DNA from: an uncultured Gammaproteobacteria bacterium | Lineage (GTDB): Bacteria > Patescibacteriota > Patescibacteriia > Magasanikbacterales > GWA2-37-8 | Length of the DNA: 64,000 nt | Direction: 5' to 3' | Assembly (NCBI GenBank): GCA_964511375.1 | Contig: CAZEEW010000002.1 | Location: forward strand, 36,157 to 100,156 | In this document: positions 20,557 to 37,446 of the stretch, piece after piece | Layout: each line of letters begins with the position of its first letter | Numbering within the stretch: the stretch's first letter is position 1 | The notes under the pieces: generated by a model | What the model saw: only the letters and a program-made list of their open reading frames with translations | The model's database searches: none | Told to the model about the DNA's origin: nothing | Position numbers and translations under genes: made by a program

Positions 20557-21744
20557 ATGGCTGATTTTCAAAGAAACAAGCCACACGTTAATATCGGTAC
20601 TATTGGTCACGTTGACCATGGTAAAACAACGTTAACTGCAGCTATCTTGCAGGTTTTGACGGCTCATGGCATGACCGCTCAAAAGAAGGGTGTTGATGAT
20701 TTGGATAAAGCTCCAGAATCAAAAGCCCGCGGTATCACCATCTCAACTGCTCATGTTGAGTATGAAACCGAAAAACGCCACTACGCTCACGTTGACTGTC
20801 CAGGTCACGCTGACTACGTAAAGAACATGATTACTGGTGCTGCTCAGATGGATGGTGCAATCTTGGTTGTTTCCGCTGCTGATGGTCCAATGCCTCAGAC
20901 TCGTGAACACATCTTGCTTGCTCGCCAGGTAGGTGTACCTTATATCGTTGTTTTCTTAAACAAAGTTGACCAAGTATCTGATCCAGAACTTGTTGACTTA
21001 GTTGAAGCCGAAGTTCGCGACTTATTAAATAAATACAAATTCCCAGGCGATACCACTCCGATCATCCGTGGTTCCGCTTTGAAAGCTTTAGAAAATCCAT
21101 CAGATCCTGCTGCTTCTCAACCTGTTATGGATCTTATGGCTAAAGTTGATGAATATATTCCAGAGCCAACTCGTGCTACTGACAAGCCAATGTTGATGCC
21201 AGTAGAAGACGTTTTCTCTATCGAAGGTCGTGGTACCGTAGTAACTGGTCGTATTGAGCGCGGCATGATCAGCTTAAACGATGAAGTAGAAATCGTTGGT
21301 TTACGCGATACTCAAAAGACCGTTGTGACTGGTATCGAAATGTTTAACAAGAGCTTAAAAGAAGGCCAAGCTGGTGACAATGCTGGTTTGTTACTTCGCG
21401 GTACTAAGAAAGAAGATGTTGAGCGTGGTATGGTTCTTGCTAAACCAGGTTCCATTACCCCACACACCGAATTCGAGGCCAACGTTTACGTTTTGACCAA
21501 AGAAGAAGGTGGCCGCCACAAACCATTCTTCAAGGGCTATAAGCCACAGTTCTACATCCGTACTACTGACGTAACTGGTGAGGTAGAGTTAGCTGAAGGC
21601 GTTGAAATGGTTATGCCAGGTGACACTGTTAACATCACCGTAAAATTGATCGTACCAGTTGCTATGGAAGAAAAGATGAACTTCGCTATCCGCGAAGGTG
21701 GCCGCACCGTTGGTGCTGGTGTTGTAACCAAGATTATTAAGTAA
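20557..21744 (+). CDS. tuf: Elongation factor Tu
   Basis: [25 protein letters not shown]. Confidence 0.97.
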
Positions 21745-21752
21745 ATTTAATG

Positions 21753-21790
21753 AGGGGGCCGTATTTAAACGGCCCCCTTAATTTAGTTCT
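21753..21790 (+). terminator. Rho-independent terminator after tuf (agggggccg-tatttaaa-cggccccct)
   Basis: 9-bp GC stem. Confidence 0.65.
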
Positions 21791-21804
21791 TTATTCTTTT
21801 TAAC

Positions 21805-22152
21805 ATGACGACAGCCATGAACCCGACCACCCAGAAAAAAGAGGAGCAAGGGAGTAGAATCCGTATCAAGATTCGTGCTTATGATAATCACATTCTTGAC
21901 CAGGCAGTAAAGACCATTATTGAAACTGCTGAACGCAATGACGCGAAAGTAGTTGGTCCAGTACCATTGCCAACGGAAAAGACCAAATTTACCATCCTCC
22001 GCTCCACTTTTGTGCACAAAGATGCTCGTGAACAATATGAAATGAGCGTGCACAAGCGCTTGGTCGACATTATGAACGCTAGCCCAAAATGCATTGATGC
22101 TTTAATGAGCTTATCTTTGCCAGCTGGTGTTGATGTCGAAATCAAGATGTAA
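21805..22152 (+). CDS. rpsJ: 30S ribosomal protein S10
   Basis: RIRIKIRAYD…LPTEKTKFTILRS…HKDAREQYE. Confidence 0.93.
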   Translation: MTTAMNPTTQKKEEQGSRIRIKIRAYDNHILDQAVKTIIETAERNDAKVVGPVPLPTEKTKFTILRSTFVHKDAREQYEMSVHKRLVDIMNASPKCIDALMSLSLPAGVDVEIKM

Positions 22153-22195
22153 AAATTAGGGGTTTTTTGACAACCGGATAGTCTTTCCTTTGTTC

Positions 22196-22224
22196 TTGAC
22201 AAATAGTCGGGTTTGTGTTATTAT
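22196..22224 (+). promoter_or_regulatory. Consensus-like promoter TTGACA-17-TATTAT inside the rpsJ-rplC gap
   Basis: ttgacaaatagtcgggtttgtgttattat; a second TTGACA at 22167 and a third at 22332. Confidence 0.45.
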
Positions 22225-22412
22225 TTTGGCACACCAATTTATCTTTATCTCGCGGTAAATAAGATTTTCTTCTCTCTGGGTAATTCAGAGAGGAAAAAAA
22301 CATTTAGACGAGCAAAAGATAAGAAAGGGTTTTGACAATAGTTAAACGACAATTAAAGCCAATCTTAGAAAAGCCATATTTTATGGCACTTCGGTATATG
22401 CCGGAAAAGAAA

Positions 22413-22467
22413 GGCTAGAAGCCCGGATTAGAAAGTAATATTTTTAGTCAGGGCTTCTAGTTTTTTG
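22413..22467 (+). terminator. Long stem-loop (ggctagaagccc … gggcttctag) + T6, 40 bp upstream of rplC: terminator/attenuator or 3' end of a small RNA
   Basis: 10-12 bp stem, 26-nt loop, followed by tttttt. Confidence 0.5.
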
Positions 22468-22509
22468 TTAAGACCCTCTAGGTCGGGGGTCCGCTAACAC
22501 ATTATATAT

Positions 22510-23256
22510 ATGAAATTCATTTTAGGTAAGAAATTAGGCATGACACAGGTCTTCCTTCCGAATGGCGAGGTAGTACCAGTCACACGCGTCCAAGCTGGAC
22601 CATGCTTTATCACAGCATTGAAGGAGGAAAAGGAGAAGGCGCAAAAAATGGTGCAGATTGGTTTTGGAGAAATTAAAGAATTTCGTTTAAGTAAGCCTGA
22701 AGCGGGTCATTTAAAGGATTTGACGCCAGTCCGCCATTTGCGCGAATTAGCTGTTGAAACTTTAGATAACTTAAAGCGTGGCGATCAAATAGATTTAAAT
22801 ACCTTTGTAACTGGTGATCGAATTGATGTCGTCGGTGAATCAAAAGGTAAAGGTTTTGCTGGCGTTGTAAAACGCCATCACTTTTCTGGTGGTCCAGCTA
22901 GCCATGGTCACAAAGATAACTTACGCGCTCCTGGTTCTATTGGTGCTGGTGGTGTACAACGTGTTTTTAAAGGTATGCGCATGGCTGGTCACATGGGTAG
23001 TGATCGCGTCACAGTTAAAAATTTAGAAATTATTGAGGTCCATCCAGAAACTAATGAGATTTTAGTAAAAGGTGCTGTTCCAGGTGCTCGCAATGGTTTG
23101 TTATTGCTTATTGGTACCGGCGAATTAAAAGTTAAACAAGAAGTTGCTCCAGTTGTTGAACAACCGGTAGCGATTGAAACACCAGTTGAAGAGGTCACTT
23201 CATCTGCTCCAGTTACTCCGGAAGAAACTACTGCTCCAGAAGCTAAAAATGAATAA
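22510..23256 (+). CDS. rplC: 50S ribosomal protein L3 (with low-complexity C-terminal extension)
   Basis: GKKLGMTQVF; tail PVVEQPVAIETPVEEVTSSAPVTPEETTAPEAKNE. Confidence 0.93.
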   Translation: MKFILGKKLGMTQVFLPNGEVVPVTRVQAGPCFITALKEEKEKAQKMVQIGFGEIKEFRLSKPEAGHLKDLTPVRHLRELAVETLDNLKRGDQIDLNTFVTGDRIDVVGESKGKGFAGVVKRHHFSGGPASHGHKDNLRAPGSIGAGGVQRVFKGMRMAGHMGSDRVTVKNLEIIEVHPETNEILVKGAVPGARNGLLLLIGTGELKVKQEVAPVVEQPVAIETPVEEVTSSAPVTPEETTAPEAKNE

Positions 23257-36153: not shown

Positions 36154-37446
36154 ATGTATTCCCTAATAAAAGATTTATCTAAACATGTTGGTGAAGAAGT
36201 AGTAATAAAAGGGTGGTTGTATAACAAGCGTTCTTCTGGCCCGATTGCTTTTCTTGAACTTCGAGATGGTTATGGTTGGGTACAGGGCGTGGTTGTTAAA
36301 AACGACGTCTCTGAGAAAGTGTGGCAAGACGCTGAGAAATTAACACAAGAGTCTTCTCTTGAATTAGTCGGTGTTGTGACTAAACATCCTAAAAAGGAAA
36401 ATATTTTTGAACTCCAAGTTAAAGACATTAAAGTAATTCAAATATCAGGAGAATATCCAATTGCTTTAAAAGAACATGGCCCGGACTTTTTAATGGATAA
36501 CCGTCATTTGTGGCTAAGAAGTAAAAAACAATGGGCGCTCTTACGTCTCAGGGATGCAATTATTACTGCTGTTAATGAATATCTGCATCAAGAGAATTTT
36601 ATTAAAGTTGATTCACCGATTTTTACACCAAATGCTTGTGAAGGCACAACCACATTATTCCCGGTGCCATATTTTGATCTTGGTACAGCTTATTTGTCTC
36701 AATCCGGTCAGTTGTATATTGAGGCTGCTATTGCTTCCGTTGGCCGTTGTTATGACTTTGGTCCAGTGTTTCGCGCCGAGAAGAGTAAGACCAAGCGCCA
36801 TTTAACCGAATTTTGGATGATGGATGCCGAAGGTGCCTTTATGGAGCATGAGGATAATTTAAAAAACCAAGAGGGTTTAGTACGTTATGTCGTACGTTAC
36901 GTTTTAGAACATTGTGATGAAGAATTAACTGTAATGGAAAGAGATAAAGAAAGATTGCGTCAAGCTGATGCTCCATTTACACGATTGACATATGACCAAG
37001 CGATTGAAAAACTTCATGAATTAGGATCAGATATTAAGTACGGTGAAGATCTGGGTAATGACGATGAAGGTCTTTTGACCAAAGATAGTGTTGTGCCAGT
37101 GTTTATTGAAAAATGGCCGAAAAGTATTAAGCCGTTTTACATGAAGCGTGACCCAAATAATGCTGAGCTGGTTTTAAATGACGACCTAATTGCCACCGAT
37201 GGTGGGGGAGAATTAATTGGTGGTAGCCAGCGCGAAGATAATTTTGATCTTTTGCTTGAACGTATTAAACATGAAGGCCTCCCAGTGGAAGATTATGAGT
37301 GGTATTTAGATTTACGTCGCTACGGCGCAGTGCCACATTCAGGATTTGGTATTGGTCTAGAACGCACTGTGCGCTGGATCTCTGGTACCGAACACATTCG
37401 TGAGTGTATCCCATTCCCGAGGACGATTGGAAGATTGAAACCGTAA
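36154..37446 (+). CDS. asnS: Asparaginyl-tRNA synthetase (class IIb)
   Basis: Motif 2 FRAEKSKTKRHLTEFWMMDAE, motif 3 GFGIGLERTV, 430 aa. Confidence 0.8.
   Translation: MYSLIKDLSKHVGEEVVIKGWLYNKRSSGPIAFLELRDGYGWVQGVVVKNDVSEKVWQDAEKLTQESSLELVGVVTKHPKKENIFELQVKDIKVIQISGEYPIALKEHGPDFLMDNRHLWLRSKKQWALLRLRDAIITAVNEYLHQENFIKVDSPIFTPNACEGTTTLFPVPYFDLGTAYLSQSGQLYIEAAIASVGRCYDFGPVFRAEKSKTKRHLTEFWMMDAEGAFMEHEDNLKNQEGLVRYVVRYVLEHCDEELTVMERDKERLRQADAPFTRLTYDQAIEKLHELGSDIKYGEDLGNDDEGLLTKDSVVPVFIEKWPKSIKPFYMKRDPNNAELVLNDDLIATDGGGELIGGSQREDNFDLLLERIKHEGLPVEDYEWYLDLRRYGAVPHSGFGIGLERTVRWISGTEHIRECIPFPRTIGRLKP

Follow-up and report, generated by a model that had tools for sequence, protein, structure and literature searches.

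In the reading that we consider probable, the 357-bp gap between rpsJ (ribosomal protein S10) and rplC (L3) in contig CAZEEW010000002.1 of an uncultured Magasanikbacterales bacterium (Patescibacteriota; assembly GCA_964511375.1) consists of a promoter and a structured, cis-acting 5' leader and attenuator of about 235 nt, which belongs to the rplC-rplD-rplW-rplB... operon and probably senses a ribosomal protein. Herein, the window is the whole stretch of 64,000 nucleotides that was analyzed (positions 36,157 to 100,156 of the contig), and all positions are counted from its first letter. The gap had been singled out by an initial annotation made from the letters and open reading frames (ORFs) of the window, and its limits are as stated there: the flanking ORFs end at 22152 and start at 22510. 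Judged from sequence comparison, the promoter, the hairpin domain and the terminator in the gap are beyond chance, because they are conserved in relatives. Two marks of a ribosomal-protein leader (r-leader) were found, namely a covarying structure and a location 5' of the genes on a ribosomal-protein mRNA, whose start is a predicted one.

The conservation of the gap was assessed in 80 species-representative loci of the GTDB, which were retrieved by the L3 protein and in each of which S10 and L3 were located. The best L3 matches came from Candidatus Magasanikbacteria and other Patescibacteria (66-72% identity) and the more distant ones from Chloroflexota; the S10 homologues of related loci were 55-96% identical. 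In essentially all Patescibacteria loci, S10 and L3 were separated by a long gap (104-954 nt, in most cases 200-450 nt), whereas the gaps of Chloroflexota/Dehalococcoidia measured 10-93 nt. Given this contrast, the long spacer is a clade-wide trait and not an accident of one genome. When the spacers of the 28 closest loci were compared side by side, the same blocks appeared in the same order in the window and in 18 of the 28 loci (later 20, with L009 and L021). This arrangement, hereafter the M-type leader, begins with CTTGACA-17 nt-TAnnnT (block 1), followed by rUAAAUAAGAUy, a variable hairpin and GAAAACAUUUAy (block 2), GGAG(A)AAA (block 3), an A/U-rich stretch such as UAUUUAAAAAUU (block 4), AAGCCAUUCU (block 5), one or two variable hairpins (block 6), and AAGGCUAGAAGC, a variable insert and GCUUCUAGUUUUUUGUUA (block 7); often there is a further hairpin, and then the rplC ATG (blocks 8-9). 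RNAalifold, applied to the full leader of 14 sequences, recovered P2, the base of P3 and the terminator (helices as in Table 1), with compensatory changes at 17 of the 31 pairs.

Metagenome contigs were scanned with the base of the terminator stem alone (AAGGCTAGAA-N22-52-TTCTAGTTTTTT), so that rplC was not used. The scan returned 90 stretches, 83 of which had an L3 homologue on the same strand 3-119 nt after the T-tract; one further contig is cut 80 nt after the match and has S10 upstream, which brings the number of metagenome contigs to 84. Among the other six stretches, five lacked stem complementarity and were chance matches (two pairs of them duplicates), and the remaining one (L138) was an ordinary terminator after a gene of an unrelated high-GC organism. 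Of the 85 matches that form a hairpin, 84 thus lay directly before rplC, the exception being that unrelated terminator. A covariance model of the 5' domain, described below, found the domain once in each of 78 metagenome contigs, always just upstream of the terminator. With the blocks in this order in 19 GTDB species representatives and in the 84 metagenome contigs, the element is common to more than 100 related Patescibacteria. The conservation in relatives that the initial annotation had proposed to examine was therefore present both in the GTDB loci and in the metagenome contigs, together with covariation.

The promoter reported by the initial annotation (TTGACA-17-TATTAT) is present and matches the sigma-70 consensus at 11 of 12 positions, with a TG extension at 22216-22217 upstream of the -10 box; transcription is predicted to start at about 22228-22233, some 7 nt after that box. 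A perfect TTGACA, a spacer of exactly 17 nt and a TAnnnT -10 box were found in 76 of the 79 distinct loci that had enough upstream sequence to be evaluated, and the promoter was also seen across the GTDB locus set. The end of the -10 hexamer mostly lies 27-43 nt before the conserved ATAAGAT, a near-fixed distance to the hairpin domain. The order promoter, structure, terminator, gene is the one expected of a leader, and differs from an arrangement in which the terminator of one gene precedes the promoter of the next.

The 5' domain, folded by itself, had a free energy of -24.4 kcal/mol (z = -4.7). The whole spacer reached -113 kcal/mol on the + strand, compared with -76 +/- 4.8 kcal/mol in shuffles (z = -7.7); the - strand was also structured (z = -6.3), as is expected of hairpin-rich DNA. 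The gap holds a nested inverted repeat, and the small hairpin reported earlier at 22271-22295 is real but forms only the tip (P3) of the longer hairpin 22239-22322. The same long hairpin was obtained in 19 of 19 sequences whose 5' regions were folded individually: P1a, P1b, a small loop, P2 of 5-6 bp, a 4x4 internal loop AAGA/AAAC and a variable P3. The sequences of P1 and P3 differ widely between loci. In an alignment of the 5' domain of 21 sequences with gap-free flanks (A2), 77.9% of the cells were paired for the named structure (P1b, P2 and P3), and the covariation score was 0.469, compared with 0.231 +/- 0.022 in shuffles (0/500) and 0.10-0.22 when the pairing partners were slid by 1-3 columns.

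The covariance model built from this alignment (R1) matched the window at 22243-22320 with 44.6 bits (E = 1e-7) and had exactly one match per M-type locus. No second copy was found in 681 kb of GTDB loci plus the window, apart from a weak match in the L059 spacer, or in 606 kb of metagenome loci plus the window. The metagenome loci, none of them used in training R1, were fitted to the model and gave an alignment of 79 sequences with 69 distinct rows (A3). Its covariation score was 0.470, against 0.230 +/- 0.012 in shuffles (0/500) and 0.07-0.18 in slid controls, and its pairs showed balanced alternatives (UA:36/CG:30, AU:43/GC:24, CG:34/UA:34 and CG:30/UA:30). An alignment fitted to a model leans towards the structure of that model, and we judged the signal to be far above this bias. 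The pattern ATAAGAT..AAACAT occurs once in the window. Extra matches to it in L016, L018 and L019 were considered as second copies of the domain and rejected, as they lie within coding sequence and have no flanking helices.

The more distant Patescibacteria have different scaffolds with the same kind of module, in which a helix is followed by a 5' strand N-A/G-A-G-N, a U:A pair, a second helix, a 3' strand W-A-A-C and again a helix. Examples are GGAG|AAAGA|UCCC...GGGGA|AAAC|CUCC and GGAG|UAAGU|UGCC...GGCA|UAAC|CUCC. This helix-flanked loop was present in 17 of the 41 spacers outside the M-type training set (16 non-M-type spacers and the M-type L021); shuffles gave 0.15 on average and 1 at most. 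In about 10 further loci, judged by eye only, the strands appeared to be permuted (UAAC, a capped helix, AAGU). Many variant leaders end in a terminator of the form CYAGAAG...CUUCURG-U-tract or CUGG...CCAG-U-tract.

The terminator proved stronger than the 10-bp stem with T6 described initially. In isolation it folds into an interrupted stem of 11+9 bp (22414-22461; -28.3 kcal/mol, z = -7.7), its pattern has a single match in the window, and 43 nt separate the end of the T-tract from the rplC ATG; in relatives this distance is 2-119 nt. A stable, G+C-containing stem-loop and a U-tract, the two components of an intrinsic terminator, are both there. The base of the stem, CUAGAA/UUCUAG, is invariant; at the ten positions inside it, 81% were paired across 90 distinct terminators, compared with 56% when the 3' arms were exchanged. 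In five relatives (L093, L157, L161, L162 and L090) the rplC ATG follows the U-tract by only 2-7 nt. Since this leaves no room for a promoter, rplC can be read there only by read-through of the terminator.

The segment that precedes the 3' arm of the terminator (22355-22418) folds as a helix, P4, around two hairpins (-19.6 kcal/mol, z = -3.4). P4 is formed by AGCC and by the GGCU at the start of the conserved GGCUAGAAGC, and it is extended by lineage-specific complements such as AGCCUU/AAGGCU, AGCCAA/UUGGCU, GGCCAU/AUGGCU and AGCCAUUCUUGA/UCAAGAAGGCU. This extension covaries: the cognate duplex had -7.71 kcal/mol, compared with -6.99 +/- 0.13 kcal/mol for permuted partners (0/2000). The P5 hairpins showed compensatory changes relative to L165 and L084. 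The C and U of GGCU also make the two bottom pairs of the terminator stem, beside the U-tract, so P4 and the complete terminator compete for two nucleotides. Downstream of the terminator, a further hairpin folds with -12.2 kcal/mol. Many relatives have a GUUA-stem-CAA-UGAC/UAAC hairpin with different, covarying stem sequences, and this hairpin, located 3' of the attenuator and 5' of the start codon, may act as an operator for translation. The coordinates of all features are collected in Table 1.

Table 1. Features of the rpsJ-rplC gap and the flanking genes (positions in the window)
Feature	Position	Strand	Sequence or remark
tuf	20557-21744		Upstream of rpsJ; from the ORF map
rpsJ (S10)	21805-22152	+	ORF and translation; upstream of the leader element, outside its control
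Gap rpsJ-rplC	22153-22509		357 bp
Upstream GGGGTTTTTTGACAAC copy	22160-22175	+	rpsJ 3' region, between stop and promoter; without a -10 partner
Sigma-70-type promoter	22196-22224	+	-35 TTGACA 22196-22201, 17-nt spacer, -10 TATTAT 22219-22224
5' hairpin domain	22239-22322	+	From fold, covariance model and covariation
P1a	22239-22246/22315-22322	+	
P1b	22249-22252/22309-22312	+	
P2	22256-22260/22302-22306	+	UAAAU/AUUUA
Invariant 4x4 internal loop	22261-22264/22298-22301	+	AAGA/AAAC
P3 hairpin	22265-22297	+	The small hairpin of the initial annotation
Linker	22323-22356	+	Purine-rich and A/U-rich; between 5' hairpin and P4
Third motif copy GGGUUUUGACAAUAG	22327-22341	+	In the linker; BoxA-like
P4 three-way junction	22357-22416	+	AGCC 22357-22360 and UCUU 22363-22366 pair with AAGA 22407-22410 and GGCU 22413-22416
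P5a, P5b hairpins inside the junction	22373-22387, 22390-22405	+	
Intrinsic terminator/attenuator	22415-22466	+	Stem CUAGAAGCCC..GGGCUUCUAG 22415-22460, U6 22461-22466
Post-terminator hairpin	22467-22498	+	GUUA 22467-22470:UAAC 22495-22498; GACCC 22472-22476:GGGUC 22487-22491
rplC (L3)	22510-23256	+	First gene of the controlled operon; then rplD, rplW, rplB and the rest of the S10/spc-type cluster

The linker between the 5' hairpin and P4 contains AAAGGG, the counterpart of a GGAG(A)AAA that hardly varies among relatives. A motif search in 82 linkers returned GGAGAAAA and, after it, WUUURAMAAUU. The stretch GGGUUUUGACAA (22327-22338) of the window is able to pair at 12 of 12 positions with UUGUUAAGACCC (22465-22476), just 3' of the terminator (-17 kcal/mol), and this pairing is part of the minimum-free-energy fold. 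Across 83 leaders, cognate partners paired barely better than non-cognate ones (48/2000 permutations). A long-range helix between linker and U-tract was therefore rejected as a family feature, its family-wide support being weak, and it is possibly a lineage-specific pairing. The near-invariant GGAG lies directly after the 5' hairpin, within the leader and about 180 nt 5' of rplC; it might act as a standby site for ribosomes, contribute to a protein site or pair with CUUCU. No Shine-Dalgarno sequence was found directly before the rplC ATG (22499-22512), and the same holds for most relatives.

The initial annotation had also drawn attention to repeated GGGTTTT(T)TGACAA motifs. The copies exist: TTGACAA occurs at 22167, 22196 and 22332, always on the + strand, with longer GGGTTTTTGACAA-like copies at 22161-22173 and 22326-22338. 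The middle TTGACA is the conserved -35 hexamer. Both extra copies are kept only in the three nearest sequences, L165 (L3 84.5% identical), L084 and L124; the upstream copy is missing at its position in other M-type loci, and at the position of 22326-22338 most relatives have GGAG(A)AAA-N-UAUUUAAAAAUU. Within the window, TTGACAA was not enriched (14 found, 15 expected), nor was the 13-mer with 2 mismatches (3 found, 3.9 expected), and the copies are unusual solely in their local clustering. We therefore do not take the GGGTTTTTGACAA repeat to be characteristic of the family or a motif of the whole genome, and regard it as lineage-specific.

Collectively, the sequence evidence strongly supports a promoter-driven, structured, cis-acting leader with an attenuator-type terminator before rplC. 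Its mode of action can be proposed as follows. Once transcription has started about 7 nt after the -10 box, the nascent RNA would fold in turn into the hairpin with the AAGA/AAAC loop, the linker, the P4 junction and the terminator. The terminator would serve as an attenuator through which every operon transcript has to pass. A ribosomal protein made from the operon, when in excess over free rRNA, would bind the internal loop, the junction or both and thereby increase termination. The likeliest candidate for this protein, by analogy, is L4, with L3 as the second. Binding would shift the balance between P4, with read-through, and the complete terminator stem, with termination. P4 probably favors read-through, because intrinsic termination depends critically on the lowest pairs of the stem. 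A further level of control, on translation, may come from the hairpin that separates the terminator from the ATG. rpsJ is outside this unit and seems to be expressed with tuf.

Several points weigh against this proposal. The terminator stem, at -28 kcal/mol, looks very efficient, which calls into question whether an essential operon would receive sufficient read-through. Sequence-level conservation of the stem base is not explained by a simple attenuator. A classical long antiterminator that excludes the terminator was not found, and the only competitor is P4 with its 2-bp overlap. L4 as the ligand is a guess by precedent. Mimicry of rRNA, which is frequent though not obligatory in r-leaders, was not evident: the conserved blocks matched E. 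coli 16S and 23S rRNA, the only rRNA compared, no better than shuffles did, and the helix-flanked AAGR/WAAC loop had one weak match in E. coli rRNA and nothing above chance. Two likenesses noticed by eye, to 23S 189-207 (GAACUGAAACAUCUAAGUA) and to helix 43 (GGCUUAGAAGCAGCCAUC), were rejected as below significance. E. coli 23S helix 43 (L171; 1062-1085; the L11/thiostrepton site) has a GGCU:AGCC helix and an adjacent (U)AGAAGC. It resembles the P4/terminator junction of the window (22357-22424) in permuted order, with a match no better than chance, and the operon does not encode L11. An antiterminator made from the AGCCAUUCUAA block and the 5' half of the terminator was likewise rejected, since by inspection it has at most 5 bp and is not conserved. 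In one group of variant leaders, inspection showed that the linker AUAUCUUAAAAAUU complements the terminator over its loop and 5' arm, a classical antiterminator arrangement.

Among the alternatives, antitermination by Nus factors deserves to be set out, although we regard it as unlikely. Here S10 (NusE), encoded just upstream and made together with EF-Tu, would bind the linker with NusB as a BoxA-like site and cause read-through of the attenuator, so that the L3... operon would be positively coupled to the supply of S10. BoxA-like sites are reported upstream of rpsJ and translation genes in gammaproteobacteria, with the consensus GYTCTTTAANA (PMC5725501). The linker is the most conserved unpaired part of the leader, and matches to this gammaproteobacterial consensus with at most 3 mismatches were found in 45 of 82 linkers, about twice the approximately 21 in shuffles; BoxA is not defined for the candidate phyla radiation (CPR), to which the Patescibacteria correspond. 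The best linkers had 2-3 mismatches and none had fewer than 2, the critical C4 is mostly missing, and in an A/U-rich region such matches are cheap. Two related contigs have a 16S gene and its leader upstream of tuf. In the rRNA leader of L153, the sequence GUACUUUGACAAUUUA, which we take to resemble E. coli boxA, stands after a hairpin and shares a 9-nt core, UUUGACAAU, with the window at 22330-22338. However, the linkers of L153 and L158 are not clearly like the elements in their own rRNA leaders, only two rRNA leaders were compared, and antitermination leaves the invariant internal loop of the 5' hairpin unexplained. As to these two rRNA leaders themselves, L153 (reverse strand, about 170-195 nt before the 16S start) and L158:1120-1540 share a long hairpin GGGAAGAAAAAAGAG...CUCUUUUUUCUUUC, after which come AAAGAU and the BoxA-like GUACUUUGACAAUUUA (L153) or CCCAUUACAAUUUAA (L158), with a conserved GUGACAAA further on. 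Many M-type relatives have a 16S rRNA gene on the strand of tuf, with its end about 1 kb before that gene, which gives the order 16S, tuf, rpsJ, leader, rplC (L016, L018, L019, L089, L090, L103, L132, L145, L153, L158, L161 and L169; e.g., L158:1537-3000 and L018:~115); the window itself has no rRNA gene. This location of 16S may bear on the Nus-factor/BoxA idea.

The initial annotation had left the choice between a small RNA (sRNA), an attenuator and a ribosomal-protein leader; the last two agree with the promoter-driven cis leader and its attenuator-type terminator, and a purely independent sRNA is disfavored. Such an sRNA gene of about 235 nt, trans-acting or housekeeping, with the operon fed by leaky read-through, is in our view quite unlikely. 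A strong promoter and a very strong terminator would indeed yield abundant terminated RNA, and the 5' hairpin with its invariant loop could itself be a protein-binding module. Yet the element keeps a fixed position immediately upstream of rplC in nearly every hairpin-forming match, has no further copy elsewhere in the loci searched and matches no RNA family (6S, SRP, RNase P and tmRNA included), and rplC has no promoter of its own, with its ATG almost touching the U-tract in some relatives. A dual role as sRNA and leader is possible. We give as little chance to a constitutive, non-regulatory partial stop, which would merely fix the ratio of the downstream ribosomal proteins to EF-Tu and S10, while the structure before it would only stabilize or process the mRNA. 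The strong hairpin between tuf and rpsJ, suggestive of stepwise attenuation in the cluster, and the 104-122 nt spacers of L017 and L022, which retain the terminator module only, fit this explanation. Stability, however, does not account for an invariant 4x4 loop across lineages and scaffolds, and the covarying P4 that shares nucleotides with the terminator and the conserved sequence of the terminator stem base are left unexplained. A leader of the riboswitch type, responding to a small molecule, an ion or some other signal (e.g., Mg2+, (p)ppGpp or tRNA), is very unlikely. It would agree with an aptamer-like domain followed by a terminator and with the highly conserved loop and junction nucleotides, but all downstream genes encode ribosomal proteins, whose regulation is known to operate through feedback by a protein (PMC7247131, PMC10931766). 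Among the Rfam families, neither riboswitches nor T-boxes matched even at E <= 10, and a core that amounts to one small internal loop within a long and variable hairpin suggests recognition by a protein more than a pocket for a ligand.

Searches for known RNAs returned nothing for the spacer. Rfam 15 contained no family that matched it at the gathering score (whole window) or at E <= 10 (21700-22700), including riboswitches, T-boxes and the housekeeping RNAs 6S, SRP, RNase P and tmRNA. There was also no leader match at the gathering score in 14 related loci representing all leader types. Membership of a known family was rejected, as Rfam gave only tRNAs, chance miRNA-like matches and a sub-threshold L20_leader match (25 bits; gathering score 58.7), which falls on the hairpin of the tuf terminator and not on the leader element. 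A tRNA or tmRNA in the spacer was not found. Across 19 leaders, no small ORF was conserved in presence, frame, start or end, and a leader peptide was rejected because the 40-aa, 53-aa and 28-codon TTG ORFs of the spacer are not shared. The 28-codon ORF (22332-22419) ends at a UAG within the invariant GGCUAGAAG. L004, L007, L012 and L092 have a GGAG-7 nt-UUG AAA mini-ORF, whose frame, length and start are not conserved family-wide. A literature search found no description of a CPR rplC leader. A published catalogue of r-leaders (Eckert & Weinberg) lists an L4 candidate upstream of rplC in Archaeoglobi only, and the S10 leader in Firmicutes (PMC7247131).

R-leaders work either through a Rho-independent terminator that forms conditionally or by making the ribosome-binding site inaccessible (PMC7247131). 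The S10 leader of E. coli, which is confined to some gammaproteobacteria, has an attenuator hairpin at which L4 stabilizes a NusA-paused complex and thereby brings about NusA-dependent termination; L4 represses translation as well (PMC10931766). Like this leader, the element described here is a long structured 5' UTR (untranslated region) before the L3-L4-L23-L2... genes, with an intrinsic terminator inside the leader near the first controlled gene. It also has structure on both sides of the terminator, through which transcription as well as translation could be controlled (PMC10931766). Unlike the E. coli leader, which stands upstream of rpsJ and governs the whole operon, the CPR element lies downstream of rpsJ and excludes S10; the lineage differs too, and there is no Rfam homology, although which S10/L4 leader models Rfam 15 holds was not checked. 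In Archaeoglobi, a leader for L4 has been proposed before rplC-rplD-rplW-rplB and was rated uncertain by its authors (PMC7247131). The CPR element shares with this candidate the gene set (rplC, rplD, rplW, rplB...) and an S10 encoded elsewhere, and differs from it in having a bacterial sigma-70 promoter and an intrinsic terminator, and no Rfam match. As in the attenuation leaders of Firmicutes, such as the L10(L12)4 leader of rplJL in B. subtilis and the L20 leader, a structured domain is followed by a Rho-independent terminator (PMC10931766), protein binding being a prediction in the present case. Those leaders have a clear antiterminator and anti-antiterminator, whereas the CPR element has only the 2-bp overlap of P4 and terminator, and proteins and motifs differ. 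The linker resembles BoxA elements in being unpaired, U-rich and then A-rich, and placed after a hairpin and before a termination point (PMC5725501); unlike them, it departs from the published consensus and stands in an mRNA leader with an intrinsic and not a Rho-dependent terminator. The element is thus a real, conserved and previously undescribed leader of a ribosomal-protein operon with an attenuator-type terminator, of a known functional kind, and new in its structure, its lineage and its position, which splits off rpsJ.

In the cluster upstream, the interval between the tuf stop and the rpsJ start (21745-21804) contains a strong terminator-like hairpin (21751-21780) with a 12-bp stem and 8 G-C pairs, and no promoter-like site. 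rpsJ therefore seemingly depends on read-through from tuf. EF-Tu and S10 seem to form one unit, an archaea-like arrangement; in archaea, S10 follows EF-1alpha. Among the proteins encoded here, L23 (23912-24370; 152 aa, TTG start) has an N-terminal extension of about 55 residues rich in Lys, Ala and Glu, L3 has a C-terminal tail of about 45 residues rich in Pro, Glu and Thr (23100-23256), and S10 has an N-terminal extension of about 15 residues; these extensions are typical of CPR ribosomal proteins. Two Magasanikbacteria have much longer S10-L3 spacers of 954 nt (L003:3047-4000) and 792 nt (L009:3209-4000), in which an additional ORF of some 130-170 codons appears to separate rpsJ from the leader or its promoter; L009 has no recognizable promoter. 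At the other extreme, the spacers of two Patescibacteria, L017:3879-4000 (122 nt) and L022:3897-4000 (104 nt), hold only a CAGAAG...CUUCUGG-U6-GUUA terminator module, without promoter or 5' hairpin. The terminator module seems to be the part of the leader most widely retained.

R-leaders are the main known means by which bacteria balance the synthesis of ribosomal proteins and rRNA, and none has been described for the Patescibacteria/CPR, a huge, uncultured and genome-reduced lineage with unusual ribosomes. With more than 100 examples before the largest ribosomal-protein operon, the motif is a candidate for RNA family databases and for the annotation of CPR genomes. It also offers a concrete target for asking whether L4-type feedback or a Nus-factor mechanism exists in the CPR. 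For the evolution of operons, it marks the uncoupling of S10 from the rest of its operon, and the recurrence of one internal loop in different and permuted scaffolds is an example of how protein-binding RNA regulators evolve, protein binding being predicted here. A broader scenario, which we also hold to be unlikely, would join these observations: the S10 operon of Patescibacteria would be split in an archaeal-like manner, with S10 (NusE) beside EF-Tu and the other approximately 25 ribosomal-protein genes behind their own promoter and phylum-wide attenuator leaders; the loop module would occur in at least four scaffolds, circular permutations included; and S10-NusB at the BoxA-like linker would license read-through, opposed by a feedback protein (e.g., L4) at the loop. 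If this were true, the synthesis of ribosomal proteins would be coordinated by an antitermination device of the rRNA type that had been recruited for this task.

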